From: a virus
Lineage: Duplodnaviria; Heunggongvirae; Uroviricota; Caudoviricetes
DNA length: 64,000 nucleotides
IMG/VR virus record: IMGVR_UViG_3300047159_000049
Strand: one strand, 5' to 3'
The notes under the pieces are model-generated. The model was not told where the DNA came from and ran no database searches. It worked only from the letters and a program-made list of their open reading frames with translations. Positions 3 through 28,775 of this stretch are shown piece by piece. The translations under genes and the position numbers were made by a program. Position 1 is the first letter of the stretch. Each line of letters starts with the position of its first letter.

Positions 3-1424
3 ATCATAGACACGAAGAATTCCGAATACGGGACCAAGAGCGCCAATCTGACGAAGCTCGAGATCCTGAACAAACGCCCATTGGCGTGCACGACGATCGA
101 CAGCTGCCCGTTTATCAGCGACGCGCTTAAATACGTCAATCTTCCGTCTGAGCTAAAAACTCTGGATAAGGAGATCTACGACGCCAAAGCGCTTCTCAAA
201 GAAGACCAACGCGCGGCCGACCGTCTGTCTGAGATCGTTCACCTATACGATGAATTCGCGATCTATTATTCAGCCATGAAACCTCGCGAGAATCCTATCA
301 TCGCGTATTTCGTGGCTCAGTCAAAGACGACTTTCTCCAAGACGCTTCAAAAGCCGATCAATGATCTCAACGCTTTGGCGCAATCGGTCATCTCGTCAGC
401 CAAGAAAGGATTGGAGGATCTGCAGTCGATCACGTCCCTCGAAGGAGAGATCGAGCAGCTGAAGACCCGCTACAAAGCCATCTCCGATTCCGAGAAGAAC
501 CGGCAATATTTCAATTCCGAAGCATCGACGAAGACCGATATGGAAGCCGCCGAGAACAAAAAGCTCGCCGCCGCCGTAGAAGCCATCCTGAGCCTCGATA
601 AGCAAAAGGCATCCCAAGAGGCTGCCCTCAAGGAAACCGAGGAATACATCAAGAGCAAGACTGAGTCCAACGGATTGAATGCTGAAGCGACTAAGCTTAA
701 GGCTATCGTCGATGATTACAACAACAAGCTGTCGATGAAGACCGCCAATGACGCTGAACTGGTCACGGTAAACGCCGGGCTCAGCAATGCCAATGGCACC
801 AAAACGCGGCTTCAGGAAAGCATGCGAAACGCCGAAGCCGCGATCACGAACATCGACGCGCTCGACAAAGAGCTCGCGTCGGTAAAAACCGTCTATGCCG
901 ATCAGAAGGCCATCCGCGAATCGCTCGATCCGCGCAAAGGCATCCCATTGCTGTTCGTCCAAGCGTATCTCGGGCAAACCGAGAAGATCGCCAACGAATT
1001 GCTCGATCTGGCATACAACGGCAAGTTCAAGATCATCTTCGCTCCGACCGACAAAGACTTCTTCATCAAAGTCCAGACCGGAACCAACATGAAAGACGAC
1101 ATCACCTTGGCATCGCAAGGCGAGATCGCCATGACCACCGTGTCCATCAGCCTTGCCCTAATCGAGCAGAGCCTTGGGCGGTTTAATTCCGTATGCCTGG
1201 ATGAGATCGACGGCCCTCTGGATTCAGAGAACCGAAGGTCATTCATCTCGATCCTCAAATCGCAGATCTCAAAGATGAGCATCGAGCAGGTGTTCGTCAT
1301 CTCGCATAACGACGCGTTCGATTCGGAGAGCATGGACATGATCCTGCTTCCTGGGTCCCATGTCGACCGAGACAGCGAGTTCTTCGCCAATAAGAGAATC
1401 GTGTTCGATTCAGAAACCCTCTGA
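3..1424 (+). CDS. Rad50/SbcC-like ABC ATPase, C-terminal part (5' end lies outside the window)
   Basis: Reading frame is open to the window start. There is a long coiled-coil region. C-terminal motifs LDEIDGPLD (Walker B/D-loop) and VFVISHN (H-loop) are typical of the SMC/Rad50 family. Confidence 0.6.
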   Translation: MIDTKNSEYGTKSANLTKLEILNKRPLACTTIDSCPFISDALKYVNLPSELKTLDKEIYDAKALLKEDQRAADRLSEIVHLYDEFAIYYSAMKPRENPIIAYFVAQSKTTFSKTLQKPINDLNALAQSVISSAKKGLEDLQSITSLEGEIEQLKTRYKAISDSEKNRQYFNSEASTKTDMEAAENKKLAAAVEAILSLDKQKASQEAALKETEEYIKSKTESNGLNAEATKLKAIVDDYNNKLSMKTANDAELVTVNAGLSNANGTKTRLQESMRNAEAAITNIDALDKELASVKTVYADQKAIRESLDPRKGIPLLFVQAYLGQTEKIANELLDLAYNGKFKIIFAPTDKDFFIKVQTGTNMKDDITLASQGEIAMTTVSISLALIEQSLGRFNSVCLDEIDGPLDSENRRSFISILKSQISKMSIEQVFVISHNDAFDSESMDMILLPGSHVDRDSEFFANKRIVFDSETL

Positions 1425-1495: not shown

Positions 1496-3841
1496 ATGTA
1501 TGACAAACCATTCGACCGAGAGAAAGCCATAGATAATCTTCGCGAGCTTGCGACTGTAAGCCTTTCAACAAGAGAAGGCGTCGTATACGGCCAAGCGCTG
1601 TTCTGCATATTAGCCGGATTGCCTCTCAGCGTTCTGGTTGATCCGGAAACTCAGAAAATCGTCGAAGGTATCACTAACCTAAGAACATACGATTCGTATA
1701 ACTACACCAATCCTACTAAGATAAACTTCATCAGCGGCATGCTTGGATTGTACAGAAACTGCTATGTCGACGTCGATTCGAAGCTCAGCGTAGACATCGC
1801 AAAAGTGATCCTTTCAAGCATCGTCAGGGAAAACAAATATTCCTGGTTCGGCGATAACGCGTCAAACGTATTTCAGATGCTTAACAAGATCTTCAAATTC
1901 GAGACTTCTAGGATAGGCGACGTCGTCACGCTTCTTCTCAAAGCGCCAGATTCGTTTTTCGTTTCAAGCGGAAATCTAATGGACTCCGATGCGTCTTTCG
2001 CAGGGATCCCGTTTTCGCCGTGCAACCTATTCCAATACTATCTTGATTGCGAGATCATGTACGACACCGATATCAGCCGAATCATCAAATTCGTGAATAA
2101 GTCCGAAGGAATCCTCAAGGCTTCGTTCAAAGAAGACCCGGATGGAATAGGGCTGTTCCAATGCCCGGCTGGGATGACCTATGACGTCGTCTCCGTCAAC
2201 GCCGCCAATAAGATCCGCATCAACCGCGAGCTGATTTTAGTCAATCCCAACATCGACGACGCCAGCAAAATGGCATTCGTGTCGTCAGATCCGAAGGCAT
2301 GCGTAAAGAAAGCCATACCGGTATATGCGGAGATATTCGATCTCAAATTCACAGATTTTTCTCAGGTTTCGGCGCTTGCGGACATCATCGCCAAGTGCGA
2401 GCATCCTACTCTGACGAAAGGCAGACTTGCGTCAGAAGTTCTCAACGTCCGAGAGCAGATTCTCGTTCCTAAGCTTGAAGCCGCCATCAACACGGTTTAC
2501 AAATACTCGAAGGCTTCCGGAGTCAGCACCGAAGAGAACATCTCCAAGGCAACCCGGGCTAAACACTACAAAGGCATGCCTGGCGCCAATGACTTCTTCT
2601 CATCGGTAAAAGGCTATCGCAGCCTTGAATCCGCCATGTCAAAATTCAACGCCAGAGCCAGCTATGTCGTATGCCCGAGCAATAATAACAACAAACTAAT
2701 CTCAGCCATCGCGATAGACTACAGCGCATGCGAAGGAGATCCGACATATATCATGAAGGCTTCTTTGGCCCATGAATACATCATCGGAACGATATCGTGC
2801 ACAGATCCTGAGGAGATGATCCAATATCCTGGTCTATGGAATATGTTCGCCACAGACAAAGGAGCCCTTCCTTACGACCCTGGAAACAGCGACAGATCAT
2901 CGGCATCTTTCATGTCAGTCGTGAAGCGGTTCGCCAAATTCAGTCCAAACGCCAACAAGAAAGCGTCGTGCCGAATGATATTCGACGCGATGATACGAGG
3001 ATTCGGCGTCTTTGCGTCTAATTGGCAGCTTAACGGAAAGCATCTCAATGCCGCAAATGTCATAATGAACGATTTCTATGACGTGTTCATCAATAAATGC
3101 GTAACTCCAAACGACGATGATCCTAGAGCAAGCGTCTATGACATCTCCAATCTCGACATGACCGACGCCGACAGAGAATCTCTGGCGGCCATAGTCGGGT
3201 CATGCTACGACAGCGGGATAATCTCCGATCAGTATTACGACATCATCTATTCGAAGATCGAAGAATCGTCCATAAACGGTCAACGCTTCGATTATTATCA
3301 CATTCAGCCTATCACTAGGCTTGTCGCCATGTGCGGAAAGGCCGCTTCTAACAAATTGCTGGAAATGGCCGCCGCCCAGAAGACCTATCTTCCAATGGTG
3401 CTATTCGTATCCGGGGCTCTTCCTGGTTGCGTCTATAGTGGACGCGCTGCATTCGAGCAAGCAGCCAGGACTATCAGCGATCAACTGAAGAGCGATATCT
3501 CAAATCCGCATTACGACACGGCATTCAGCCAGATCGATGGCGATCCTGATCTCCCATTAATGACCGCGCTCGGAATCATCGTCGCCAACATCAACAACGA
3601 CTCCGCCGTTACTTATCGCCAAACAGCGGCTATCGCTAATTCCGTTAAGCGAGCTTCTGCTAACGAATATTATCGCGGAGAGGTCTCCTTTACTCCGGCT
3701 TTGCGAAATCAGTTCTCGCAGACATATTTCGAAGGGCTTTTCAAATACTACTTCTCAGATCAATCATCTCCGGAAGCGGTTGAGTTCAAGCATAATCTCG
3801 AGTATATGGACGCGTCAATATCCCTCAATCTGTCAATCTAG
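1496..3841 (+). CDS. hypothetical large protein (781 aa)
   Basis: Long ORF with an ATG start after a terminator-like hairpin. No catalytic motifs recognised. Confidence 0.6.
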   Translation: MYDKPFDREKAIDNLRELATVSLSTREGVVYGQALFCILAGLPLSVLVDPETQKIVEGITNLRTYDSYNYTNPTKINFISGMLGLYRNCYVDVDSKLSVDIAKVILSSIVRENKYSWFGDNASNVFQMLNKIFKFETSRIGDVVTLLLKAPDSFFVSSGNLMDSDASFAGIPFSPCNLFQYYLDCEIMYDTDISRIIKFVNKSEGILKASFKEDPDGIGLFQCPAGMTYDVVSVNAANKIRINRELILVNPNIDDASKMAFVSSDPKACVKKAIPVYAEIFDLKFTDFSQVSALADIIAKCEHPTLTKGRLASEVLNVREQILVPKLEAAINTVYKYSKASGVSTEENISKATRAKHYKGMPGANDFFSSVKGYRSLESAMSKFNARASYVVCPSNNNNKLISAIAIDYSACEGDPTYIMKASLAHEYIIGTISCTDPEEMIQYPGLWNMFATDKGALPYDPGNSDRSSASFMSVVKRFAKFSPNANKKASCRMIFDAMIRGFGVFASNWQLNGKHLNAANVIMNDFYDVFINKCVTPNDDDPRASVYDISNLDMTDADRESLAAIVGSCYDSGIISDQYYDIIYSKIEESSINGQRFDYYHIQPITRLVAMCGKAASNKLLEMAAAQKTYLPMVLFVSGALPGCVYSGRAAFEQAARTISDQLKSDISNPHYDTAFSQIDGDPDLPLMTALGIIVANINNDSAVTYRQTAAIANSVKRASANEYYRGEVSFTPALRNQFSQTYFEGLFKYYFSDQSSPEAVEFKHNLEYMDASISLNLSI

Positions 3842-3891
3842 CCAAAAACGCCCCTCCGAACAACGTATTATTGATCGGAGGGACGTGTCCA

Positions 3892-4353
3892 ATGGCTGCA
3901 CCAACACCAGAAACTAAGCAATTCGAAGATTACTTCAAAGACGATTTAGACGCCATAAACTCGACCATTTCCGATATCGAGCTCTACAAGAAGGGCATCG
4001 ATGGACGAATCGGTTTGATGCAAGGCGCCGGATCAAGAGGAGGCGAGCATTATCTCACCGACCATTACAAGAACGCCATCGCATTGGAAACGATGAAGGC
4101 GACGTTGCTTGAGGATCGGTTCGAGATCCATAAGACCGTCATGGACTACGCAGTCAAAGCCACCGTCACAGGCGGAGGAGACAACGAGTCCGCGCTCATT
4201 TCCATCGCAAGGAACCTTTACAAGGCTCAGGTCGCTGATCTTAATTCGGCAAACGCCGTCATGAACTCCATAGGGCCAAACGGGATCGTCCCTCAAGCCG
4301 CCAATGGAGAAACAGCCGACGCCGCGATTGACAAGCGCCTCGATAAGAAGTAA
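3892..4353 (+). CDS. hypothetical protein
   Basis: ATG at 3892 is preceded by a GGAGGGA ribosome-binding site. The ORF ends before a terminator-like hairpin. Confidence 0.5.
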   Translation: MAAPTPETKQFEDYFKDDLDAINSTISDIELYKKGIDGRIGLMQGAGSRGGEHYLTDHYKNAIALETMKATLLEDRFEIHKTVMDYAVKATVTGGGDNESALISIARNLYKAQVADLNSANAVMNSIGPNGIVPQAANGETADAAIDKRLDKK

Positions 4354-4406
4354 TATCAAGCCTGAGCCAGAGATGGCCCAGGCTAATTTTTAGAAAGGAC
4401 AATAAT

Positions 4407-5468
4407 ATGGACAAAATCATCGCATCGGCAAAGGAGCTTCAAGCCGCGATCAACGCAGGAGAGAAATCCTCCGTTCAGATCGAAGGCTCAATCTCAAGGG
4501 TCGTCTCTGTCCCAAAAGACAACAACGACAACCATCCGATGCATTTCATCATCAAGCTCGAAGCCACCGGAGATGACATCAGCGTATCCAGCTGGGACGC
4601 CGATACCATCGCGCTCATCAAGGCTTCCGAGAACAGCTCCAACGTGTTCGTCGTCACCGGCATTCCGGCGTCATACAACAACTACCCCGAAATCAAAGGC
4701 GCCAAAGCCAAAGACTCCGGAGTCGCGTCTAAGCGCAAAGCCAAGCCAGCATATCCGCAAGGAGACGTCACGATGAAATTCGTCAAGGAAATCGTCGACA
4801 AAAACGTCACGGATCCCACTTGCCTGGCCATTCTAAATGACCTTATTTTCAGCAGCAAGGATTTCTGGGCATGGCCGGCGGCAAAGCGCAACCATCACGC
4901 AGCTATCGGAGGATTGGCGTATCACTCCCTCGGCGTCTGCATGACTGCCATGAAGATCTCCGCCAACTACAACTATCAGAATATCGACAAGAGCATCCTC
5001 ATCACCGGGGCGCTTATCCACGACATCGGAAAGCTGAAGGAATATCAGCAAGACGGCACGTACGTCGATGAGTACGGAACCCTTCTTGGGCATACCGTCA
5101 TCGGCGAGATGATGCTTGAAGACGAAGCCAACAAGCTTGGCCTTTCGTTCGATGACCTTACCATCAGGCAGCTAGCCCATATCATCGCGTCGCATCACGG
5201 CACGAGAGAGAAAGGCGCGGCGGCCGTCCCGGCTACGATGGAAGCTGTGATCGTCTACAAATCAGACGACATCGATGCCACCGAAGACGCTTGCGTCACG
5301 GCTATGGCGCAAACCGTTTCGTACGGTGAGTCGACGAGCCCGATCAAGATGCTCGGACAGGATGAGAACAGATTGATCAGAATGCATCCGGCCCAGGAGG
5401 CTCCGGCCGAAGCAAAGGCCGATGCCCCTGAGGAAAAGCAATCATCCGAAAGCGACGTTCCGTTCTGA
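4407..5468 (+). CDS. HD-domain phosphohydrolase with N-terminal OB-like domain (YhaM-like)
   Basis: H...HD motif (HHAAIGGLAYHS ... GALIHDIGK). RBS AGAAAGGA is upstream. Confidence 0.6.
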   Translation: MDKIIASAKELQAAINAGEKSSVQIEGSISRVVSVPKDNNDNHPMHFIIKLEATGDDISVSSWDADTIALIKASENSSNVFVVTGIPASYNNYPEIKGAKAKDSGVASKRKAKPAYPQGDVTMKFVKEIVDKNVTDPTCLAILNDLIFSSKDFWAWPAAKRNHHAAIGGLAYHSLGVCMTAMKISANYNYQNIDKSILITGALIHDIGKLKEYQQDGTYVDEYGTLLGHTVIGEMMLEDEANKLGLSFDDLTIRQLAHIIASHHGTREKGAAAVPATMEAVIVYKSDDIDATEDACVTAMAQTVSYGESTSPIKMLGQDENRLIRMHPAQEAPAEAKADAPEEKQSSESDVPF

Positions 5469-5476
5469 GACGCCGC

Positions 5477-5493
5477 TTTTTTTTATTTTTTCC
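5477..5493 (-). repeat. AT-motif copy (T-run variant)
   Basis: Intergenic, immediately 5' of a sigma70-like promoter. Confidence 0.5.
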
Positions 5494-5503
5494 AAGCGCG
5501 GCA

Positions 5504-5531
5504 TTGACAACCGGGAAAGCTTCACGTAGAA
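5504..5531 (+). promoter_or_regulatory. sigma70-like promoter TTGACA-N16-TAGAAT upstream of the polymerase gene
   Basis: Read directly from the sequence. Confidence 0.5.
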
Positions 5532-5556
5532 TTGTATCCGTAAAGAAGGAGATCGT

Positions 5557-7596
5557 ATGGGCAAGAAGATAGGCACTCTGATCAAGTCGTTTAAAGGCAG
5601 ACGAAAGTCTTCGTCTGGAGCCGAATATGACACGATTCTTTTGATCTATCGGGATGAGAACGGCGTCAAGAAGACGTTGTTTTATGACCGGCCAGAGGTA
5701 TCGTATTACATCATCAAGGACAAGGAATCCCCAGAGGCGATCAAGCCTCCGATGTACATCGAGAACTATAAGGTCCAGGAAGTTAAGGTTTACAGCGATC
5801 TTCTTCTAAGAGACATCGCTTCGAAAACCAACGCGCTCGGTTTCTATGAAGCGGTAGCCACCACCAAAGGCATCTACTCTTATGACATGCACAACATCTT
5901 CAAGCATCCGTGGATCTATGGAGCGGATATGGATCTCAGCGACAGATACATCGCCAAGTTCCAAAATGAGTATGATCCAGATCCAAACTATAAACTTCAC
6001 AAATGCTATTTCGATATCGAGGTAGATCTCATGCCGAACGGATTCCGCGATAACGGATTCTCAGGTTTCCCAGACGAAGACGTCGCGCCATGCCCGGTCA
6101 ACGTCATCACCCTTATTGATGGCAAATTCAAAAAGATCTACACGTTTGTCAATCATAATCCTCTTAACAAATCTCTTGAGGAATTCGCTGGAGATCTGCA
6201 GGGATTTCAGAAAGACATGGCGGACCAAATTTTCAAAGAAGACAATTTGAAGCTTGATGTCAACGTCATAATGTGCGAAGGAGAGCTCAATACGATTGAG
6301 GCGTTCTTCAAGAAAATCCACGAAATAGATCCAGATTACGTCCTTGGCTGGAACTGCAACTTCGATATCATCACTTTGATCAATCGGCTCAGATATCTTT
6401 ATCGCAAAGTCGAACGCCCGGCAGGAGTTACTGCTGATCAAATGATGCTTGAGATGGTCTGTGACTCAAAATACGCGCATCAGAAAGCGGCCGACGGAGT
6501 CACCGATGTCTGGATCTCTCCTCGGGCTTTCTACCAAAAGAACGAAACCAAGAAGATCGGGTCTCGGCTTGATAACTTCATGGTGCTTGATGGCATCAAC
6601 TGGGAAGACCAGATGCTTTATTATGCGGTCATTCACTTCAGCGAAGGAAAACGCGATAGCTATAGACTAGACGCGATCGCCAACTTCGAGTTGAAGAAAG
6701 AGAAGCTCCCGTTCGCCCCAGGCGAAACCGTCAAGAATCTTCCTTGGAAGAACTTCCGCAAATTCACGAACTACAACATGCACGACGCCTTGCTTCTTCT
6801 CATGATCGAAGACAAGACTCTCGATATCGATCTTCTTCAGACGCTTTCCGAGATTACCAACACCCGCAAGGAAAAGGTATTCTCAAAGTCCATCTCGCTG
6901 CCGAACTTCATCAACAAGTATTCCATCGAGAACGGATTCATCATGAGCGGCAACAAGAATGCCGATTATGGCGATTATGGCAAGGTCTACGACACCGACT
7001 ATCGCGATGTGTCCCCTATCGTGGACAGCGATCCGGCATACACCGCCCAGATCAATCACGCCGACAAATACGGCGCGCTCGTCTCCGATCCTAACCTCAA
7101 TGAGCCTGTTGGCATGATGATGCCAAGCGGCAAGAGATCGAACCGCGTGTTCGAGAACGTCTGCGACCAAGACCTCTCATCTCTGTACCCTTCGATCCTT
7201 CGCACGCTCAATCTTGATTCCAGCACCGAGATCGGAAAGTTCATCCTCGTCGATGACGCGATCAAGTCCAATCTCAAGAAGAAGTATGGATACAGCGGCT
7301 TGTTCAAGCTCAGCGAGAAAGACGACGGAGCCGGCCAGATCGACGACGTTTCCGTTCCAGGAGAGGATGAATCGGCCGCTTCGGATGACACATCCGAAGA
7401 CGACAGCGACATTCTGTCCGACGACAAAGGAAGCTTCGCCGAGACCAGCGACTTGGGCCCGACGCTGTCAGACGAGATCGAAAGCCAGAACTGGTGCCGC
7501 CTCGGAGAGAAGTACATGTTCCTTCCGTCCGTCGACGACAACATCAAGAAAGTCGCCTCGATCATCGCGGCAAGAAAAGCGGAGGCCGGTAAATGA
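5557..7596 (+). CDS. family B DNA polymerase, exonuclease domain plus motif A; motifs B and C not found in this ORF
   Basis: ExoI YFDIEVD, ExoII WNCNFDI, ExoIII YNMHDALL, motif A DQDLSSLYPSIL. The C-terminus is acidic low-complexity, then a stop. Confidence 0.75.
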   Translation: MGKKIGTLIKSFKGRRKSSSGAEYDTILLIYRDENGVKKTLFYDRPEVSYYIIKDKESPEAIKPPMYIENYKVQEVKVYSDLLLRDIASKTNALGFYEAVATTKGIYSYDMHNIFKHPWIYGADMDLSDRYIAKFQNEYDPDPNYKLHKCYFDIEVDLMPNGFRDNGFSGFPDEDVAPCPVNVITLIDGKFKKIYTFVNHNPLNKSLEEFAGDLQGFQKDMADQIFKEDNLKLDVNVIMCEGELNTIEAFFKKIHEIDPDYVLGWNCNFDIITLINRLRYLYRKVERPAGVTADQMMLEMVCDSKYAHQKAADGVTDVWISPRAFYQKNETKKIGSRLDNFMVLDGINWEDQMLYYAVIHFSEGKRDSYRLDAIANFELKKEKLPFAPGETVKNLPWKNFRKFTNYNMHDALLLLMIEDKTLDIDLLQTLSEITNTRKEKVFSKSISLPNFINKYSIENGFIMSGNKNADYGDYGKVYDTDYRDVSPIVDSDPAYTAQINHADKYGALVSDPNLNEPVGMMMPSGKRSNRVFENVCDQDLSSLYPSILRTLNLDSSTEIGKFILVDDAIKSNLKKKYGYSGLFKLSEKDDGAGQIDDVSVPGEDESAASDDTSEDDSDILSDDKGSFAETSDLGPTLSDEIESQNWCRLGEKYMFLPSVDDNIKKVASIIAARKAEAGK

Positions 7597-7985
7597 ACCG
7601 CCGCCGGAAAGCCAAGATGGTCTCAGACGATATGGCCGATCCTATTTCGGCGATAGCGTCGTTCATCCTCTTCTGCGAGGTCAGCCAGGATCAGAAGATA
7701 CAGAAGAGGATGGATGTGCAGTTCTACCGCGAGAGGTTGATGACCAAAGTCGCTGACGGCATATCCAAAGCCGCATACGACTGCGCCATCAACGGCATGG
7801 CCGACGAGGCCAAGTTCATCAACCTCAACATGAAGAACTCTCTTTCGGTGATCGTCAATGATCTGTTCTCCAGAGGCTACTCCCAGCAGAATCAGATGTT
7901 CCTGATCGACATCCTGGAAGAGGATTCCAAGGCGCTCGATGGCGCCATTTCGATCCTGAAAGACAACCTTAGCAAGCTAAAATAG
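7593..7985 (+). CDS. hypothetical protein
   Basis: ORF overlaps the polymerase stop by 4 nt (ATGA). Confidence 0.45.
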   Translation: MNRRRKAKMVSDDMADPISAIASFILFCEVSQDQKIQKRMDVQFYRERLMTKVADGISKAAYDCAINGMADEAKFINLNMKNSLSVIVNDLFSRGYSQQNQMFLIDILEEDSKALDGAISILKDNLSKLK

Positions 7986-8014
7986 TCTCGAACAATCGAT
8001 TATACGATTGTTTC

Positions 8015-8036
8015 GGGATTATTTTTTTTATTTCCC
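8015..8036 (-). repeat. AT-motif copy GGGATTATTTTTTTTATTTCCC
   Basis: Intergenic, hairpin upstream, 17 nt before the ATG at 8053. Confidence 0.7.
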
Positions 8037-8052
8037 TCACGGAGGATCGCAC

Positions 8053-9486
8053 ATGGCTCAAAAACTAAGAAGAGAGAAGGACATCGTCCGCAAATCTGTA
8101 GACAGCTACGTCAAGGCCACGTCGCAGGATTACTCCAAATACATGGAGGGAGGCCCGACCTATCTGACCTACTACAGCTATGACGACATCGCTTCGAAGC
8201 AGGACTATGACCTTGAGGACGTCCATTCGTTCACCGGGGCAAACTCTCCGCGCAAATACAAGAAGATAAACGACGTCGTCGCCTATGGCGTCGATCCGCT
8301 TGCCATCCAAAACGAGCTGTCGAACAGAGGCCTTGAGACGAAGATCACCGGAAAGCTCGTCCTTCTTCCGAACAGCATCCAGCCTTCGTCCGAGGATTTC
8401 TTCGCATTCGACACAGATGGGCTCAGAGACCATCTTTTCAAAGTAACAGAGTACCAGTTCGATAAACCTACAAACAACACTTTCTATGAGGTGCAATGGG
8501 AGCTATACCCAGACGACACCAGCACCATTCTGTCAAATGTCGAGGACGAGTATGAAACCCAGTACGAGAACATCGGCGGAAAAGACAAGACGATCATCAA
8601 GAAAACGACAGCCGACCAAGCCGACAAGGCCAAAGTGGTCGTCGATGACATGATCGACCGCTTCTCTGAGGATTTCTACGACGCCGAGATGGACGAATTC
8701 GTCTATCGCGAATACGACGACGAAGGAAACGCCTCTGACGTCTGGAGCCCATATCTTCAGCATTTCTTGCATAAGAACAAGGTTCTGGCCAAATATTCCC
8801 CAAAGGTTATGGATGACTTCTTCATCCTCGACGTCAATGAGATCGAGAACCCGGGATTGTATTTGGACAAGATCTACCATAAGAGCATCTACAACGCAGT
8901 CGAGACTCAGACCAATTGCGTCGGAATGGAGAGCTCGTTCGCGATGGTTGCCGATTACGGCCTCAAAGACAACCGCAACCTTCCGTTCTTCCTGAATCCT
9001 CGAAAGAGCTATGTTCTGGAGTTCTATGACAGCAAGGAATCGTTCTGGCTCGGCGCGTTCCATTACATCCTGGCAGACGAGAACACCAAATTCGCAAGCT
9101 CTGACGCAGACCACAGATTCGTAAACGAAGCCGATCTTGAGACCAAGAGCAATCTGTCTGTCGGAGACCTGATCTATCAGGTGTCGTCATCGACAAGCGC
9201 CATTCCGATCGACGTGTACAAGATCGTGTCGAACGGAACAGCCGCCGACGTTCTGGCAGCCGGCCTCAACGACATGCTCAGCAGCGAGATGGCCGAAGAA
9301 TATTCAGACGACGTTCTTTTCGATCTTATCAGGAAGTACGTCTTAGGAACAACGATCGAGCTCAGCGACGATCTCCTGAAGAAGCTAAATTCTCGCGAAT
9401 ACACCAGAAGCGTGCATGACTACATGCTCATTCCTGCAGCGATATTCGTCATCAAAAAAGTGATTGATGAGGTGTATGCCCAGTAG
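8053..9486 (+). CDS. hypothetical protein (speculative relation to the polymerase palm: KINDVVAYG and FAFDTDG)
   Basis: ATG at 8053 follows a GGAGGA RBS. Acidic protein. Possible degenerate motif B/C-like strings only. Confidence 0.5.
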   Translation: MAQKLRREKDIVRKSVDSYVKATSQDYSKYMEGGPTYLTYYSYDDIASKQDYDLEDVHSFTGANSPRKYKKINDVVAYGVDPLAIQNELSNRGLETKITGKLVLLPNSIQPSSEDFFAFDTDGLRDHLFKVTEYQFDKPTNNTFYEVQWELYPDDTSTILSNVEDEYETQYENIGGKDKTIIKKTTADQADKAKVVVDDMIDRFSEDFYDAEMDEFVYREYDDEGNASDVWSPYLQHFLHKNKVLAKYSPKVMDDFFILDVNEIENPGLYLDKIYHKSIYNAVETQTNCVGMESSFAMVADYGLKDNRNLPFFLNPRKSYVLEFYDSKESFWLGAFHYILADENTKFASSDADHRFVNEADLETKSNLSVGDLIYQVSSSTSAIPIDVYKIVSNGTAADVLAAGLNDMLSSEMAEEYSDDVLFDLIRKYVLGTTIELSDDLLKKLNSREYTRSVHDYMLIPAAIFVIKKVIDEVYAQ

Positions 9487-9523: not shown

Positions 9524-10135
9524 ATGGATTACTATTACAATATCTTAAACACTGGAAATTTCCTGGGAATCAAATCCCCGGCACATAAGGTTCTCCTTCC
9601 GGAGTCCATGGCCGTTTTGGCCTCGAGAATGGGCGCGCAGATCGAACGATGGACGCCTGAGAGCGACGCCGTCGCCGAAGCGCAGCCTAAAAGCGCCAAG
9701 ATAGGATCCCCCGCCATAGAAGATATCGGAAACGTCGACAAAATCATAGAGAAAGAGGCTTACGCAGAGCAGCAAAGAAAGCTCCATCGATACGGCTATC
9801 TCACAAGAAACAGCCCAGAATGCCAAGTAAACGCAACCGTTGCCAAGATGACGTCGTACACGAGGCAGCAGCTGAAGGCGATGCCTACTGGCATGCTCGT
9901 CAACATCATCCTCGCCCGCGGGGATAGCCTTGGCCACACATTCAGGCGCGAAGGCTACATCGCCATCATCATGAGAGGAAACATCATACCCGAGCCCGAG
10001 AAGCCTATCACGCATAACGCGATGGTCCAAAAGATCAAGCGGCACGCCGCCCCAAAGGATCCGGACGTTCTCCCAAGAGGGCATCCGACCAGAGAGTACT
10101 GGGCGACTCATAGGAAAAAGCACGATTATGAGTGA
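9524..10135 (+). CDS. hypothetical protein
   Basis: ORF with the AT-rich motif immediately upstream of the ATG. A terminator-like hairpin lies downstream. Confidence 0.5.
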   Translation: MDYYYNILNTGNFLGIKSPAHKVLLPESMAVLASRMGAQIERWTPESDAVAEAQPKSAKIGSPAIEDIGNVDKIIEKEAYAEQQRKLHRYGYLTRNSPECQVNATVAKMTSYTRQQLKAMPTGMLVNIILARGDSLGHTFRREGYIAIIMRGNIIPEPEKPITHNAMVQKIKRHAAPKDPDVLPRGHPTREYWATHRKKHDYE

Positions 10136-10267
10136 TCAAATACCTAGCCTTAGCGGCTGGGTATTTTTTTCTGTAGAAACGGATTAGCACTCTCAACAAT
10201 ACATTGCTAAATGGGAATGCCCATTTTGCGCCAATGTATGAATCGGCGCCATTGAGGTTTTTCATTT

Positions 10268-10786
10268 ATGTTCGAGGATGACTACAATAACGGAATGAAT
10301 GTCGAAGTTCCTACGTTCGGCGATTGGTTCGATTCGTTTTTCAACGGAGCCGCGCCGTTCAGCAAGAGCTGGATCAGATATAACCGTCCGCTTCATGAAG
10401 TCGATGGCTACAAAGTCTATCCGGCAAAAGGGAATCCGAACGGATTAATCGTTGTCGTCAACACCGCCGGAATCCAAGCGAAAGACGTCTCCGTCACATG
10501 CACGCAGAGCAAGACGCTTCACATCTGTGGCAAGACTACTATCGATGCCATTGGCGAAACGAACTCTGTCGACATCTCGCTCAAGATCAATGTCGTCAAT
10601 CCGATCGAGAAGATCGCTTCGAAGACGATCGATGGGTACACCTATATCTATATGCTGTTCAAGTCTAAAGACGCCGAAGCCGTCAAAGTGACTAGCCTAG
10701 AAGACAATCACGACTTCTTCGAGCTCGAGGATAAGAAGGCAGATAGCAAAGCAGACACCAAGTCAGAAGCCAAGCCTTCCAAGTGA
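10268..10786 (+). CDS. hypothetical protein
   Basis: ORF with an ATG start. Confidence 0.5.
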   Translation: MFEDDYNNGMNVEVPTFGDWFDSFFNGAAPFSKSWIRYNRPLHEVDGYKVYPAKGNPNGLIVVVNTAGIQAKDVSVTCTQSKTLHICGKTTIDAIGETNSVDISLKINVVNPIEKIASKTIDGYTYIYMLFKSKDAEAVKVTSLEDNHDFFELEDKKADSKADTKSEAKPSK

Positions 10787-10940
10787 TACTTTTAAGCTTT
10801 TGTCGATTTTTGGCACATCCCATTTAGCACTAGACAGCCGGCCTATAGCCGGCTTTCCGGTGCCTTTGCATATTTTGCATTTTCAAGCCTTTTATAGTAA
10901 ATAGTTGCGTTTTAGGCAATAATACATTATATTAGAGTCT

Positions 10941-10960
10941 GGAAATAAAATATTTTATCC
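10941..10960 (+). repeat. AT-motif copy, palindromic variant GGAAATAAAATATTTTATCC
   Basis: Intergenic, 20 nt before the 10982 start. Confidence 0.65.
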
Positions 10961-10981
10961 AGGAAGCGAGGCACATTTCAT

Positions 10982-11224
10982 ATGAGCGATAGCGTCAAGA
11001 AGCCCGAGAAAGACTCTCAGAAACCGAAGATCATCAAAGCATCGGATCTCGCCAGGATCATCGGCGTGACCTCCCAGACGATCAGAAATCACGTCAATGA
11101 GGGATTGCTTAATCCTCTCATCATCAACGGAAGGTACTATTTCACGATGGACGAGGTCGCAAGATACCTCGGCGAAGGCAAGAAATCCGGAGATCATAAA
11201 TCATCAAAGAAGGATGGCGAATAA
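10982..11224 (+). CDS. small HTH DNA-binding protein (MerR/excisionase-like)
   Basis: IIKASDLARIIGVTSQTIRNHVNEGLL helix-turn-helix pattern. Confidence 0.5.
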   Translation: MSDSVKKPEKDSQKPKIIKASDLARIIGVTSQTIRNHVNEGLLNPLIINGRYYFTMDEVARYLGEGKKSGDHKSSKKDGE

Positions 11225-11227
11225 GCC

Positions 11228-13297
11228 ATGGCAAAGAAATACTTAGTCTTAGTCGAGTCTCCAGGCAAGGTTCACAAGATATCTCAGATCCTTGGGCCGA
11301 ATTACAACGTTCAGGCGTCGATCGGGCATATCGCCAGGATCGCCGACAGCGGAAAATACAGCCTCGGCATCAACGTGGACAAAGACTTCGAGATGGATCT
11401 TGAAGTCGATCCTAAGAAAGCCGAAGTCGTCAAGAGCCTGCGCTCAGCCGTCAAGAACGCCGACATCGTCTATCTGGCATCCGACGCCGACCGCGAAGGG
11501 GAGATGATCTCCTATTCGCTTAAGCGCTTCCTTCAGATCCCCGATGAGAAAGCGAAGAGAATAACTTTCACCGAGATCACCGAATCGGCCATCAAGGAAT
11601 CAGTCAAGAAGCCAGGCGTCATAGACGACAACATGGTCGAAAGCGCCATGACGCGCATGAGCCTTGACAAGATCATAGGATACCGCCTGTCCGGAGTCGT
11701 TCAGCGCAAGCTATGCTGCAAATCGGCAGGCCGCGTCCAATCGGCAGGACTGAAGATCCTGTGCGACAGGGAGAATGAGATCAAGGCATTCGTCCCCGTT
11801 CAATATTTCGAGCTGTATCTCCCGTTTGATAAGAATGGCGTCATATACGAAGCCAAATACCGCGGAACTGACGCCAAGCGCATGTCGACGTTCAAGAGCC
11901 GAGACGACGCGATCGCCGTCATGAACGAATGCAAGCCCGGCAACTACAACGTCGGAAAGATCGAAAGCTCTGACAGAGTCGTCAAATCAAAGCTTCCGTT
12001 CACGACAAGCACGTTTCAGCAGGATTGCTCGTCGAAGCTAAACTACACTCCGAAGAAAGCCATGGAGATCGCCCAGAAGCTGTATGAGCAAGGGTTCATT
12101 TCGTACATGAGAACCGACGCCGTCAGATTCTCCGACGAATTCATCGAAGCCGCCAAGAACAAGATCGTCGGCGAGTTCGGGAGCCAATACTACACCGGGC
12201 TCCGCATCCCGAAGGATCAGAACAAGGATGCCCAGAACGCGCATGAATCGATTCGCCCGACGCACATCGAAGACACCCCCGAAGCGCTGGCCCTCAAATT
12301 GGACTCGGAGCAATTCAACGTCTATAAGCTCATCTATTCCAGATCTCTGGCGGCTTTGATGGCCGATGAGATCATGACGGATCTCGAAACCTCGATCTAT
12401 AACGGGGCCAACAGATTCTCGTTCATCGCGCACTCTGTCAAGTTCGACGGATTCGCCAAAGCCTACAATTACACCGATCCGGACGAGGAAGACGCCAAGT
12501 TCCCGGTCATGTCGATGAATGAGCATGTCAAAGACGGTCCGCTTCGGCTAGACGAGAAATCGACTAACCCGCCAGCCAGATACACGGAAGCTGGGCTCGT
12601 CAAAGCCCTCGAGGATTCCGGCGTTGGCCGCCCATCGACATACGCGACGATCATCGGCGTTCTCAAAGACGCCGCCAGAGGATACACCGAGATGGTAGGC
12701 AAAACGATGAAGCCGACAGACAAGGGTCTGCTTCTGTCAAAATTCCTCGACGATCATTTCTCAGACATCATCTCCCTCGAATACACGTCAGAGATGGAAT
12801 CCAAATTGGACGAGATAGCCGGAGGCAAAGCCACCCGCGTCCCGACGCTGAAGGATTTCTACGGCAAGTTCGATCCTGAGATCAAAGCCGTCAAGGACAT
12901 CGAGGTCGAAGGCCGCCCCGTCGTCGAGAAAGTCGAAGGCCGCAAATGCCCGCTGTGCGGACACGATCTCGTCTATCGCAACGGCAGATACGGCAGATTC
13001 ATAGCCTGCTCAAACTACATGAGAGGCCACTGCAAGTACACCGAGCGCCTGGATGCCAATGGCAACCCCATCCCGTCAAGCGCCAGCGACAAGAAGCCAG
13101 CCCCGGAAAAGACCGGGTTCAAATGCCCTAAATGCGGAGGCGACGTCATCAAGCGCCATTCCGCCAAGACCGGCCAGGACTTCTACGGATGCTCAAACTA
13201 CCCGAAATGCCATCAGGTATGGTCTCAGGCATCCTTCGATGAGACGTTCAAAGGCGCCAAGAAGAAAATAAATAAAATTTCCGTCGATAAAGACTAA
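11228..13297 (+). CDS. type IA DNA topoisomerase (TopA/Topo III-like) with C-terminal zinc ribbons
   Basis: Toprim LVLVESPGKVHKI. Active-site region GFISYMRTDAV. Two Cys4 ribbons (CPLCG...CSNY, CPKCG...CSNYPKC). Confidence 0.85.
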   Translation: MAKKYLVLVESPGKVHKISQILGPNYNVQASIGHIARIADSGKYSLGINVDKDFEMDLEVDPKKAEVVKSLRSAVKNADIVYLASDADREGEMISYSLKRFLQIPDEKAKRITFTEITESAIKESVKKPGVIDDNMVESAMTRMSLDKIIGYRLSGVVQRKLCCKSAGRVQSAGLKILCDRENEIKAFVPVQYFELYLPFDKNGVIYEAKYRGTDAKRMSTFKSRDDAIAVMNECKPGNYNVGKIESSDRVVKSKLPFTTSTFQQDCSSKLNYTPKKAMEIAQKLYEQGFISYMRTDAVRFSDEFIEAAKNKIVGEFGSQYYTGLRIPKDQNKDAQNAHESIRPTHIEDTPEALALKLDSEQFNVYKLIYSRSLAALMADEIMTDLETSIYNGANRFSFIAHSVKFDGFAKAYNYTDPDEEDAKFPVMSMNEHVKDGPLRLDEKSTNPPARYTEAGLVKALEDSGVGRPSTYATIIGVLKDAARGYTEMVGKTMKPTDKGLLLSKFLDDHFSDIISLEYTSEMESKLDEIAGGKATRVPTLKDFYGKFDPEIKAVKDIEVEGRPVVEKVEGRKCPLCGHDLVYRNGRYGRFIACSNYMRGHCKYTERLDANGNPIPSSASDKKPAPEKTGFKCPKCGGDVIKRHSAKTGQDFYGCSNYPKCHQVWSQASFDETFKGAKKKINKISVDKD
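13261..13282 (+). repeat. AT-motif copy
   Basis: Encodes the last residues (KKINKIS) of the topoisomerase. Confidence 0.55.
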
Positions 13298-13894: not shown

Positions 13895-15517
13895 ATGGAC
13901 AACAAGAATTTCATGGCCGCGATGCAAACCGAGGCCGACAAAGCTCAGAATTATTCTGAGACCGAGAACGGGGCGGTCGGCTACAAGTCGACCGGATCCG
14001 AACTTCTCAATATCAATTTCGCGGCATCGTCGTTCAGATCGATGCCGGAATCCGGAATCGCCGCCAATTTCGAGAAAGCCTATGATGAGAGCAACGAGCT
14101 CGCCATGAAATGGGCCTTCTATCTTCGCGACGTCCGCGGCGGAATGGGCGAGCGCCGTTCTTTCAGAGCCATCATCAAATGGCTCGCCGACAATCATTTG
14201 GATGACTTGAAGAAAGTCATTTCTATGATCCCGGAATACGGCCGCTGGGACGATCTCTTCGTCCTGTTCGGAACCAAAGGCGAATCGGCGATGGCCGAAG
14301 TCGTCAAGGCCGAATGGGCCGCCGAGACCAAAGACGCCGCGGCCAACACCCAACGGATCTACGGCCTTGCGAAATGGGCTCCGTCCGAGAACGCCTCGAG
14401 CGAAGAGACCAAGATGCTCAGCTCCAAAGTCCGCGGGATCCTCGGAGTCAGTCCGAGAGATTACCGCAAGGCTCTTTCGAAGATGCGCGCCATCAGCGGC
14501 ATCGTCGAGACTAAGATGTCCGCCAACGATTGGAAGGACATCGACTTCTCGAAAGTTCCGTCGAAGGCGTCTGCGAACTATGCCAAAGCATTCGACCGCC
14601 ACGATCAGTCGAGATATGAAAAGTACCTCGAGGACGTCAAAGCCGGAGTTGCCAAGATCAACGCCGGAGCGATCCTCCCGCCGGACATCTATCACAAGGT
14701 GTCGACGATGATCTATCTGACATACGGCAAGGCCAACTACCTTCTACATTGCAGCGGATTCAGAAAGATCGACGGATACACCGTGCCCACCCAGAACAAA
14801 GCCGCGGTCGATGCGCTGAACCTCCAATGGAACAGCCTGCCGGCCCCAGCCAAAGATCTTCCTACGACTCTCGTGATCACCGATGGCAGCGGATCAATGA
14901 CCGCATTTGCCACCAAAGGATCCGATGTCATGAACATCGACATCGGCCGAGCGCTCGGCATCTATTTCGCCGAGCACTGCAAAGGCGAGTTCCACAACAA
15001 GATGATCACTTTCAGCGAGCGTCCTGAATTCATCGATCTCGACAAGGCTCCCACTCAGGACCTTGCCGGAAAGATCGCTTACGTCAGCCAATACGACGAA
15101 GTGGCCAACACCGATATCAAGAAGGTCTTCGACCTGATCCTTAAAACCGCCAAAAACGGCAATATGGCTCAGTCTGATCTTCCTGGGACCGTGCTGATCA
15201 TCTCCGACATGGAGTTCGACCAAGGAGCCACCGGACTTGACGCGGCGTACGATCCTAGCGTCAAAGATCCGACTTTGTTCGGCGAGATCGGAGCTGAGTT
15301 CGAAGCCGCCGGCTACAAGCTGCCCCGCCTCGTCTACTGGAATCTCGGATCGCGCTCCGGCACGATTCCGATGACCCAGAACGACAAAGGCGTCTGCCTC
15401 GTCAGCGGATACTCCCAGAACGCCGTCAAGATGTTCATGGACGGAGACACGGACCCCTACAAGGCCTTGGTCAAAGTCCTAATGTCCGACAGATACGCCG
15501 CGGTCACCCTCAAGTGA
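13895..15517 (+). CDS. vWA-domain protein
   Basis: MIDAS-like VITDGSGSMT. Preceded by RBS AGGAGG. Confidence 0.6.
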   Translation: MDNKNFMAAMQTEADKAQNYSETENGAVGYKSTGSELLNINFAASSFRSMPESGIAANFEKAYDESNELAMKWAFYLRDVRGGMGERRSFRAIIKWLADNHLDDLKKVISMIPEYGRWDDLFVLFGTKGESAMAEVVKAEWAAETKDAAANTQRIYGLAKWAPSENASSEETKMLSSKVRGILGVSPRDYRKALSKMRAISGIVETKMSANDWKDIDFSKVPSKASANYAKAFDRHDQSRYEKYLEDVKAGVAKINAGAILPPDIYHKVSTMIYLTYGKANYLLHCSGFRKIDGYTVPTQNKAAVDALNLQWNSLPAPAKDLPTTLVITDGSGSMTAFATKGSDVMNIDIGRALGIYFAEHCKGEFHNKMITFSERPEFIDLDKAPTQDLAGKIAYVSQYDEVANTDIKKVFDLILKTAKNGNMAQSDLPGTVLIISDMEFDQGATGLDAAYDPSVKDPTLFGEIGAEFEAAGYKLPRLVYWNLGSRSGTIPMTQNDKGVCLVSGYSQNAVKMFMDGDTDPYKALVKVLMSDRYAAVTLK

Positions 15518-16356: not shown

Positions 16357-16557
16357 ATGAATCCCGCCAAACGGCGGAAGGAGTTGATTCCTATGCCATC
16401 AACAAAGAGCAACGACAAACTTAATCTATACTCTAGCTCTACCAAGGATGCTGGCTTCGTGCATCACGTTTGCGCCAATCTAAACATCCTTGGATTATTC
16501 GGATGCTCAGGATTCGAGGTGTCGAAAGACGATCCGAGAAAACTAAATCTCAAATGA
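16357..16557 (+). CDS. possible small protein
   Basis: Short ORF ending just before a terminator hairpin. Weak RBS. Confidence 0.25.
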   Translation: MNPAKRRKELIPMPSTKSNDKLNLYSSSTKDAGFVHHVCANLNILGLFGCSGFEVSKDDPRKLNLK

Positions 16558-16590
16558 ACCCGATCCGATTCGGGTTCTTTTTTTTATTTC
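16558..16590 (+). terminator. intrinsic terminator
   Basis: GAACCCGA-TCCGAT-TCGGGTTC plus T9. Confidence 0.6.
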
Positions 16591-16593
16591 CCG
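16579..16593 (-). repeat. AT-motif copy (T-run plus ATTTCCC)
   Basis: Follows a terminator hairpin, 30 nt before the ATG at 16623. Confidence 0.55.
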
Positions 16594-16622
16594 GCGGCGT
16601 CCGGCGTCCCGAACAATTGATT

Positions 16623-18388: not shown

Positions 18389-19216
18389 GTGAAATTCGTT
18401 TTGTTTAACATCAAAACATTCGGATGGGCCTCAATGCGAATAACCGATGAATGCATAGTCAAAAATCTTCCCTATGCCAAGAAGACCAAAGACCGGATGA
18501 CCGGCGAAGCCAGCTATGAGTTCGTTTTATCCAAATGCGACGAAAACGCATCCGACCCTGTAAGCGACTACGTGAATGCGATAGTAGCCGATCATGCGAT
18601 TCCATCAACGGTTCCAGATTACATGCTTAACACGATTTCCGATTCCATCGCCAAAGCATTCGCTGACAATACGGAGAAATTGGACCAGGATCACATCAAG
18701 GTCTATCCGTTGGCGGTCATTGATTCAAAAGATATCGGCATGAGCTACTGCGACGGAAGCTCAAGCTCTAAGAAGCCAGCCGCCGGATTCGCGTCGGTGA
18801 CTTTGTATGATCCAAACGAATCCGATTCGCCGATGATCGAATCGTTCTCCGGGCTTCCGAAATGCTACAACGCTTTCAGCGGGTCCATCAAAGGAGGCAC
18901 CAACAACGTCGGGGAGCTTACCGCGATCGGGTCATGCGTCAAAAACTCCGACGCCCACACGATACAGATCATCGCGTCAGACTCGGCATACGCCATCGGC
19001 GCGTTCCGCGAATGGATCGACAATTGGAAATCCAATGGATACAGAGGATACTCCGGCTCCAAAATAACCAATGCCGACCTAATCAAAAGCGTGGAGTCGA
19101 TGATCGACGACCGCAAAGGAGACGTGTTCCTGTTCAGATGGATCAAAGGCCACGACGAGGACAACTTCAATGAGATCTGCGATCGGCTCGCCAAAGACGC
19201 CATCGGCGTGAAATGA
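18389..19216 (+). CDS. RNase HI-domain protein
   Basis: C-terminal CDGS...NNVGELTAIG...DSAY...WIKGHDEDNFNEICDRLA matches the RNase H1 motif order. Confidence 0.6.
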   Translation: MKFVLFNIKTFGWASMRITDECIVKNLPYAKKTKDRMTGEASYEFVLSKCDENASDPVSDYVNAIVADHAIPSTVPDYMLNTISDSIAKAFADNTEKLDQDHIKVYPLAVIDSKDIGMSYCDGSSSSKKPAAGFASVTLYDPNESDSPMIESFSGLPKCYNAFSGSIKGGTNNVGELTAIGSCVKNSDAHTIQIIASDSAYAIGAFREWIDNWKSNGYRGYSGSKITNADLIKSVESMIDDRKGDVFLFRWIKGHDEDNFNEICDRLAKDAIGVK

Positions 19217-22895: not shown

Positions 22896-22906
22896 ATAAA
22901 ATCGCC
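22884..22906 (+). repeat. AT-motif variant
   Basis: Spans the stop codon of the AAA+ gene. Confidence 0.4.
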
Positions 22907-22963
22907 GAATGCCCCCAGGACCAACAATCCTGAGGGCGCCCCGATTTGGAAAGGGTATCAGAA

Positions 22964-28770: not shown

Positions 28771-28775
28771 TCGTT

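Follow-up and report, generated by a model that had tools for sequence, protein, structure and literature searches.

Can a gene that carries the proofreading exonuclease of a family B DNA polymerase, and only the first of its polymerase motifs, belong to a complete replicase, or is it what remains of one? An open reading frame (ORF) at positions 5557-7596 of a 64,000-nucleotide stretch of viral DNA (Caudoviricetes; IMG/VR record IMGVR_UViG_3300047159_000049), here called the window, raises this question. A first-pass annotation, made from the letters and a list of ORFs, had described it as a family B polymerase (PolB) that ends shortly after motif A, and had suggested that the enzyme was split, highly divergent or truncated by rearrangement. 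The first of these suggestions is borne out, but not the other two, as the stop codon lies at a position typical of a known family and the protein recurs unchanged in many samples. We propose, with a probability of about 0.9, that the ORF encodes the N-terminal subunit of the two-subunit family B replicative polymerase of phiKZ/AR9-type jumbo phages. As such, it is an ordinary member of a known split polymerase, and the missing motifs B and C are an already-described feature of that enzyme and not a truncation. The evidence lies in the homology of the ORF, its motif content, its conserved stop position, the lack of a partner in the window and the presence of both subunit genes in every cultured relative compared. 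The phage presumably carries a partner gene as well, and the two proteins would associate and be active.

The polymerase ORF and its motifs

The ORF starts with an ATG seven bases 3' of an AAGGAG ribosome-binding site, and covers an N-terminal domain, a 3'-5' exonuclease and the first segment of the palm, which holds motif A (Table 1). Both the alignment with RB69 gp43 and a motif scan agree with the first reading of the sequence in that ExoI, ExoII, ExoIII and motif A are clear and motifs B and C absent. The scan matched motif A at 7171-7191, and found neither motif B (K-x3-NS-x-YG) nor motif C (Y-x-DTDS) in the ORF. By the RB69 gp43 alignment, D539 and Y544 of the ORF are the catalytic aspartate and steric-gate tyrosine of motif A, and the motif also aligns with ADLDIVSTYPN of phiKZ gp82, which contains D562 (PMC13648687). 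Motif A, including these two residues, is intact and invariant in a multiple alignment, as are N266/F269/D270 of ExoII and Y406/D410 of ExoIII. The sole Pfam match in the ORF is the exonuclease domain PF03104 (E 2.4e-9), with no match to the polymerase domain PF00136.

The ORF does end early and without motifs B and C, but its stop lies 140 residues past D539 and not about 100 as had been thought. Nor does it run into an acidic tail and stop there. The acidic stretch is an internal insertion, and a conserved C-terminal segment of 39 residues (IESQNWCRLGEKYMFLPSVDD...) comes after it. Independent JGI and Logan samples yield the identical 679-residue protein on at least 10 contigs, of up to 219,300 bp, and the stop codon is therefore not an assembly artefact.

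Table 1. Coordinates of the polymerase subunit gene, its motifs and other features of the window
Feature	Position	Strand	Basis or remark
N-terminal subunit gene (DNAP-N, "exonuclease subunit") of a split family B DNA polymerase (proposed)	5557..7596	+	679 aa
ExoI, FDIEVD, residues 152-157	6010..6027	+	aligned to RB69 FDIEVT, D114/E116
ExoII, NFDII, residues 268-272	6358..6372	+	aligned to RB69 SFDIP, D222
ExoIII, YNMHD, residues 406-410	6772..6786	+	aligned to RB69 YNIID, Y323/D327
Motif A, DQDLSSLYPS, residues 537-546	7165..7194	+	aligned to RB69 DLTSLYPS, D411/Y416
Acidic, serine-rich insertion, residues ~586-640	7312..7476	+	alignment and composition; 32% D/E
Conserved C-terminal segment, residues 641-679, IESQNWCRLGEKYMFLPSVDD...	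7477..7593	+	alignment
130-aa ORF	7593..7985	+	ATG overlaps polymerase stop (ATGA); GGAGG 7 nt upstream
Virion structural / head-tail joining-like protein	8053..9486 (start 8008 or 8053)	+	PF24214, phrog_3013
SbcC-like ATPase, C-terminal part	81..1424	+	PF02463; 911 aa in full on longer contigs
RNase H1-domain protein, 275 aa, domain at residues 119-272	18389..19216	+	PF00075, E 2.4e-21
AR9-g239-like protein, 274 aa	19218..20042	+	phrog_21037, E 1.2e-45; starts 2 nt past the RNase H stop

Relatives among jumbo phages

The PHROG families matched by the ORF are labelled "DNA polymerase" (phrog_3011 at E 2.1e-45, phrog_262 and phrog_2062; range E 2e-45 to 2e-34), and its top GenBank phage matches are to uracil-DNA and phiKZ-related jumbo phages. 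AR9 gp132 aligns at 27.6% identity over 565 residues (E 1e-41 to 1e-48); AR9, PBS1, Goe21 and Internexus are matched at 27% identity and 80% coverage (E 1e-41), and further top matches come from the Staphylococcus phages S6, MarsHill, SA1 and Madawaska, Bacillus phage BpSp and Yersinia phage phiR1-37. The proteins of S6, MarsHill and Madawaska are labelled "DNA polymerase exonuclease subunit", and AR9 g132 is annotated as "DnaQ-like exonuclease and partial catalytic domain". Similarity to phiKZ gp82 is local only, in the ExoII region (E 3e-9) and the motif A region (E 7e-4). Judged by these comparisons, the ORF appears to represent a divergent metagenomic lineage of the phiKZ/AR9 N-subunit, at 27% identity to its cultured relatives.

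In these relatives the rest of the polymerase is a separate catalytic subunit of about 640 residues, encoded kilobases away. The AR9 catalytic subunit g152, 641 residues long and 15 kb from g132, carries motif B (KLLANSFYG), motif C (VVDTDS) and the sequence NKKSYAG, and in the AR9 transcriptome paper gp152 is listed separately as the "DNA polymerase catalytic subunit" (PMC5312081). All phages in the top N-subunit matches also show a catalytic-subunit match at other coordinates, as do about 100 phiKZ-like phages of Pseudomonas, Erwinia and Vibrio, and a complete PolB in addition to the split subunits was found in none of the cultured relatives compared. The literature speaks of the "split subunit DNA polymerase" of phiKZ-related phages (PMC5105663), and describes the polymerase of group-1 jumbo phages as being without a fused exonuclease (PMC7824862). 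The split is thus a known and conserved trait of phiKZ/AR9-type jumbo phages (PMC5312081, PMC5105663, PMC7824862, PMC13648687); for phiKZ-related and AR9/PBS1-type phages, recognition of the split family B enzyme goes back to about 2012-2016, and a phiKZ structure followed in 2026. The phage of the window has the corresponding setting: it encodes a multisubunit RNA polymerase, its contigs reach 219,300 and 219,229 bp, and its SbcC gene is in synteny with AR9.

Position of the split

Among the loci retrieved with a catalytic-subunit profile, one (L045) carries a fused full-length gene at 1970-5809 (protein P0138, 1279 residues), and another (L094, 3995-7864) a catalytic-subunit gene directly followed by an N-subunit gene, that is, in permuted order. 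A second fused protein, P0192, has 1224 residues. N-subunit and C-subunit together cover both fused proteins end to end. In the alignment with P0138, the N-subunits of the window, AR9 and L094 all terminate right past a conserved W-x-x-LP segment, and the C-subunits (AR9 g152, P0085 and P0059) start a few residues past these ends; the two types therefore tile the fused protein. The C-terminal segment of the window protein aligns with the C-termini of AR9 gp132 (NKWHNLP) and of the L094 N-subunit, and with the internal W-F-D/N-LP segments of P0138 and P0192 just ahead of the C-subunit start. Counted from the motif A aspartate, the chain runs on for 74 residues in AR9 and 76 in phiKZ gp82, compared with 140 in the window protein, the difference being due to the acidic insert (about 75 residues plus an insert of about 60). 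This insertion is missing from AR9, L045 and P0192 and is much shorter in L094, and the alignment indicates that the acidic insert of about 55 residues is specific to the lineage.

When the family profile was compared with the sequences of solved structures in the PDB, its N-part aligned to residues 86-454 of RB69 and the start of its C-part to the first finger helix of archaeal PolBs (Tgo 451-537), while the roughly 100 profile positions in between, which include the split, found no match among these structures. In the C-subunit family, the invariant residues R110/K114 and K140/N144 agree with the R-x3-K and K-x3-N pairs known from the finger helices, and we infer that they belong to these two helices. 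Because of this mapping to RB69 and Tgo and the finger-helix residues in the C-subunit, the split would fall in a lineage-specific insertion, ahead of the fingers domain as a whole.

An exhaustive profile search recovered 1243 cluster representatives of the catalytic-subunit family at E<1e-30, and among the best 150 of these nearly all are stand-alone proteins of 630-720 residues and one is fused. The family is thus very large in metagenomes, with more than 1200 cluster representatives at 50% identity, and the rare fused forms, together with the permuted form with adjacent genes, could help to date the split. They could also reveal which state is the older, split or fused.

A proposed two-chain architecture

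The split polymerase of phiKZ is the subject of a cryo-electron microscopy preprint of 1 October 2026 (Basu et al., bioRxiv; PMC13648687). Its subunits DNAP-N (gp82, 638 residues) and DNAP-C (gp50, 731 residues) form a stable, interdigitated 1:1 heterodimer with polymerase and exonuclease activity (PMC13648687). The catalytic aspartates reside on two chains, D562 of motif A on DNAP-N and D426 of motif C on DNAP-C, and D562 is needed for synthesis (PMC13648687). The split falls inside a helical "palm insertion" domain built from DNAP-N 589-638 and DNAP-C 1-98 and 221-419, and a third protein, Rhc, consisting of an RNase H domain and a clamp-like domain, raises synthesis (PMC13648687).

From homology and the conserved geometry of the split, the window protein may well work like the phiKZ pair. 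Its share would be the N-terminal domain, a 3'-5' proofreading exonuclease with ExoI-III intact, and the first strand of the palm, where motif A lies. A second subunit of about 630-720 residues, encoded outside the window, would bring the thumb, the pair of finger helices and the motifs B, C (DTDS) and KKxY. Some 110 residues at the C-terminal end of the N-subunit (~566-679) are predicted to combine with about 100 residues at the start of the C-subunit to form a helical palm insertion domain, to which the conserved segment 641-679 would be an N-subunit contribution, and which would lock both chains in a stable 1:1 heterodimer. As this domain would join the two chains, the polymerase active site would be composite, with the N-subunit supplying motif A and the C-subunit motifs B and C. 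The acidic stretch 586-640 would then form an extra loop that interrupts the N-subunit share of the domain. What this lineage adds to the known enzyme is an acidic insert in the very segment that builds the inter-subunit domain in phiKZ.

Search for the catalytic partner

Several results weigh against the assignment to a two-subunit polymerase. The identity to characterised N-subunits is low (27% to AR9, and local matches only to phiKZ). An AlphaFold2 (AF2) model of the N-subunit, built on an alignment of nine sequences, reached a predicted local distance difference test score (pLDDT) of only 40 and is unusable, for which reason the fold of the C-terminal region is deduced from sequence alone. 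The catalytic-subunit partner itself was not found between -8.5 kb and +71 kb of the window with a profile hidden Markov model (HMM) built from 105 catalytic-subunit sequences, which was run on the six frames of window and flanks and gave more than 700 bits for positive controls. None of the catalytic-subunit clusters retrieved with AR9 gp152 or with an 80-sequence profile lies on the 219-kb contigs, and none of the 80 loci from a metagenome scan for the DTDS pattern comes from the samples of the window phage.

The one co-occurring candidate for the partner, P0092, adds further points of this kind. This protein of 658 residues has both PF00136 and PF20286, and its gene, at 10001-11977 of locus L121 (JGI 3300059061 contig Ga0574372_04589), adjoins genes for an S77 prohead protease and a Gp23-like capsid protein. 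It shares three samples with the window phage (3300059061, 3300053674 and SRR35985047). However, the GC content at third codon positions (GC3) is 0.78-0.87 on its contig versus 0.58-0.78 in window genes, and the tetranucleotide correlation of the contig with the window is 0.875, compared with at least 0.93 among parts of the window. None of the 8 neighbour proteins of P0092 clusters with anything on the 219-kb contigs. Owing to this difference in composition and the absence of its neighbours from the 219-kb contigs, P0092 probably belongs to a related phage that occurs in the same samples. That it is the true partner after all, which would fit a genome of really about 250 kb, seems to us unlikely, if still a possibility to be reckoned with.

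Other searches for the partner gave nothing further. AR9 gp152 had no tblastn match in the window and flanks, and a motif B and C scan of all six window frames returned chance DTD strings only. The fused protein P0138, from a GC-rich gene, yielded only 7 matches as a query, whereas the 1243 representatives of the exhaustive search were too many for the partner to be singled out among them. An IMG/VR search did not return the window phage. Three proteins, P0085, P0059 and P0083, were set aside as coming from other samples. Within the window, ORF 1496-3841 contains the string MYDTDIS and has no Pfam, PHROG or tblastn match, and ORF 16470-18299, also considered as a candidate, has no matches. The partner gene very probably lies elsewhere in the genome of about 219 kb.

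Alternative explanations

Could the ORF instead be an exonuclease-only paralog, a proofreading or repair nuclease in which motif A is a relic, in a phage replicated by a complete polymerase encoded elsewhere? The lack of a partner in about 80 kb of readable sequence would suit this explanation, as would the description by Iyer et al. of the group-1 exonuclease as a separately encoded protein (PMC7824862). We nevertheless consider it very unlikely. A relic would hardly be expected to keep motif A invariant down to the catalytic aspartate and the steric-gate tyrosine, or to conserve the C-terminal docking segment; the catalytic subunits of the family have no motif A of their own and begin exactly where the N-subunits end; synthesis by the phiKZ enzyme requires D562 of its N-subunit; and no cultured relative has an additional complete PolB. 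Decay of a once complete gene is a different matter. A polymerase gene truncated by rearrangement or turned into a pseudogene, or an error of assembly, would account for the missing motifs B and C and for the low-complexity stretch near the 3' end. This is highly improbable given an identical 679-residue ORF on at least ten contigs from independent samples, all four active-site motifs intact, a stop at the position typical of the family and past a conserved segment, a good ribosome-binding site, and a downstream ORF that is apparently translationally coupled.

It is also conceivable that the gene does not end at 7596 but continues past an intron, an intein, a frameshift or a readthrough site, with the ORFs at 7593 and 8053 or some nearby exon providing palm and thumb. 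The window phage has inteins and homing endonucleases (for example in NrdD), relatives such as Madawaska have introns in polymerase genes, and the first-pass annotation had pointed to KINDVVAYG and FAFDTDG in the 8053 ORF as weak candidates for motifs B and C. These strings are indeed present, but since the ORF at 8053-9486 encodes a virion protein they are chance matches. The profile check that had been suggested for the two downstream ORFs, carried out with Pfam, PHROG and the 105-sequence HMM, found no polymerase in either, one being without a detectable family and the other a virion structural protein, so that neither can be taken as palm or thumb. The HMM was equally silent in all six frames of the window and its flanks, Pfam reports no intein domain in the polymerase ORF, no Rfam family or intron is found anywhere in the window, there is no catalytic exon downstream, and the alternative frame at 7214-7756 is of low complexity. 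An interrupted gene is accordingly scarcely credible. We therefore favour the two-subunit polymerase, and suggest that ORF 5557-7596 be annotated as "DNA polymerase, N-terminal (exonuclease) subunit" and not as a truncated or pseudogenised polymerase, and that the neighbouring virion gene not be joined to it.

A possible Rhc-like accessory

Further along the window lies a pair of genes for an RNase H1-domain protein and an AR9-g239-like protein. The RNase H1 protein matches the N-domain of phiKZ gp155 (Rhc; E 2e-8) and AR9 g241 (E 4e-10), and by analogy with Rhc it is possibly a polymerase accessory. Homologs of the g239-like protein were found by tblastn only in AR9-type phages, and in AR9, BpSp and SA1 they lie within 1-2 kb of RNase H. 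This linkage suggested a split Rhc. When the g239-like protein was examined as the clamp-like domain of Rhc, however, BLASTP, PHROG and Pfam were negative, hhalign against seven chimallivirus Rhc proteins gave a probability of 0.1%, and the single-sequence AF2 model (pLDDT 37) is unusable. We thus assign a low probability to its being a stand-alone counterpart of that domain.

A broader version of this idea is that the replicase of this deep-branching lineage has been divided further than that of phiKZ, into an N-subunit with an acidic loop, an unlinked C-subunit and an Rhc-like accessory encoded by two adjacent genes, of which the g239-like one would provide a stand-alone processivity factor of AR9-type phages. 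The acidic loop could in that case be a DNA-mimicking or regulatory tether. We regard this arrangement as unlikely.

Neighbouring genes and other features of the window

The SbcC-like ATPase shares 32% identity with AR9 g139 over 472 residues (E 1e-53), and its gene lies upstream of that for the polymerase N-subunit, as in AR9 (g139 ... g132). Directly upstream of the polymerase is a gene for an HD-domain phosphohydrolase (4407-5468, 353 residues), in which the HD domain occupies residues 171-291 after an N-terminal region of about 160 residues. On the other side, every contig with the polymerase gene also has the 130-residue ORF in conserved form. Because of its ATGA overlap with the polymerase stop and the GGAGG upstream, it is probably translationally coupled to the polymerase subunit. 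It has no significant Pfam or PHROG match, was rejected as a polymerase fragment when the catalytic-subunit HMM gave no match, and is unrelated to AR9 g131, of which it had been considered as a counterpart. For the ORF at 8053-9486, Pfam gives PF24214 at E 9.5e-15, a family of putative head-tail joining proteins, and PHROG gives phrog_3013 at E 2.5e-20, labelled as a virion structural protein. Its homologs include g165, a virion protein of AR9 (E 4e-26), and a PF24214 gene near the catalytic subunit of another phage.

The window contains a number of other genes of note. A single ORF of 1445 residues (49202-53539, minus strand) matches beta-subunit families of phage multisubunit RNA polymerases (phrog_3148, E 3.5e-142). 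Gene calls on the 219,300-bp JGI contig break this beta-like gene into several small pieces, and the assembly of that contig may thus contain frameshift errors. The anaerobic ribonucleotide reductase NrdD extends across two overlapping ORFs in different frames (34031-35647 and 35574-39830), and the region 34031-39830 includes at least two intein splicing domains, HNH, NUMOD3 and LAGLIDADG endonuclease modules, and a C-terminal glutaredoxin/thioredoxin. A gene for a TROVE/Ro-like protein with DUF2828 and DUF7788 (13895-15517; phrog_850 "RNA-binding protein", E 1.5e-126) adjoins one for a topoisomerase IA with zinc ribbons (11228-13297). At 21327-24655 and 26506-29456, the window encodes a MoxR-like AAA+ ATPase with a VWA/DUF2201 protein after it, and a double AAA+ chaperone of the ClpB type (754 residues), directly followed by a ClpP/S49-like protease with the PHROG label "head maturation protease". 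An unusual auxiliary gene encodes a P-type cation-transporting ATPase of 843 residues with E1-E2 ATPase and HAD hydrolase domains (58714-61245, minus strand).

Comparison with known split polymerases

The closest sequence relatives of the window protein are the N-subunits of AR9/PBS1 (gp132, with gp152 as its partner), S6/MarsHill/Madawaska and phiR1-37, at 27-29% identity over about 80% of the protein. These phages share with the window the same motifs, the C-terminal W-x-x-LP ending and the position of SbcC upstream, as well as a PF24214-type virion protein and the pair of g239-like and RNase H genes. However, the window protein is 125 residues longer than AR9 gp132 owing to insertions, the acidic one among them. 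The gene directly downstream in AR9 encodes the DnaQ-like exonuclease g131, as opposed to the 130-residue ORF in the window, and the genome GC content is about 28% in AR9 versus about 50% in the window phage.

The likeness to phiKZ is one of design. In gp82 and gp50, as in our proposal, the N-subunit comprises the N-terminal domain, the exonuclease and the palm segment with motif A, and the C-subunit the rest of the palm, the fingers and the thumb (PMC13648687), the C-subunit side being presumed for the window phage. The split lies about 75 residues past the motif A aspartate in both when the window insert is discounted, the two genes are unlinked in phiKZ and would be so in the window phage, and both are jumbo phages with a multisubunit RNA polymerase. 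On the other hand, the similarity to gp82 is confined to local matches, the palm-insertion segment of the window protein has the acidic insert of about 55 residues, and no evidence of the phiKZ "little finger" insertion (residues 350-415) was seen in it. RNase H is a separate protein of 275 residues in the window, whereas in phiKZ it is fused to a clamp-like domain in Rhc.

Two-part family B polymerases are also known from T4-like phages, such as the Aeromonas phages 25, 31, 44RR and others. Their gp43, a relative of RB69/T4 gp43, is naturally encoded by two cistrons (43A/43B), and its two halves are active and purify together (Petrov et al. 2006, 2010, cited in PMC2988022, PMC3061061). There, however, the break falls within the fingertip and separates the two finger helices, with 2 bp to 3 kb between the cistrons. 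In the window phage the split would lie upstream of both finger helices, and the partner gene would be over 8 kb away on the upstream side, over 60 kb away on the downstream side, or further still. Both finger helices are assigned to the C-subunit family, and no polymerase fragment follows the window ORF, so that it does not belong with the T4-like bicistronic genes. The split PolB of Methanothermobacter thermautotrophicus is divided in the palm (PMC3061061), unlike that of the window family, which is predicted to be divided upstream of the fingers. Like the predicted split in phage RM378 and the engineered split Pfu enzyme, it nonetheless shares with the polymerase proposed here the basic property that a family B polymerase tolerates being made as two polypeptides that reassemble (PMC3061061).

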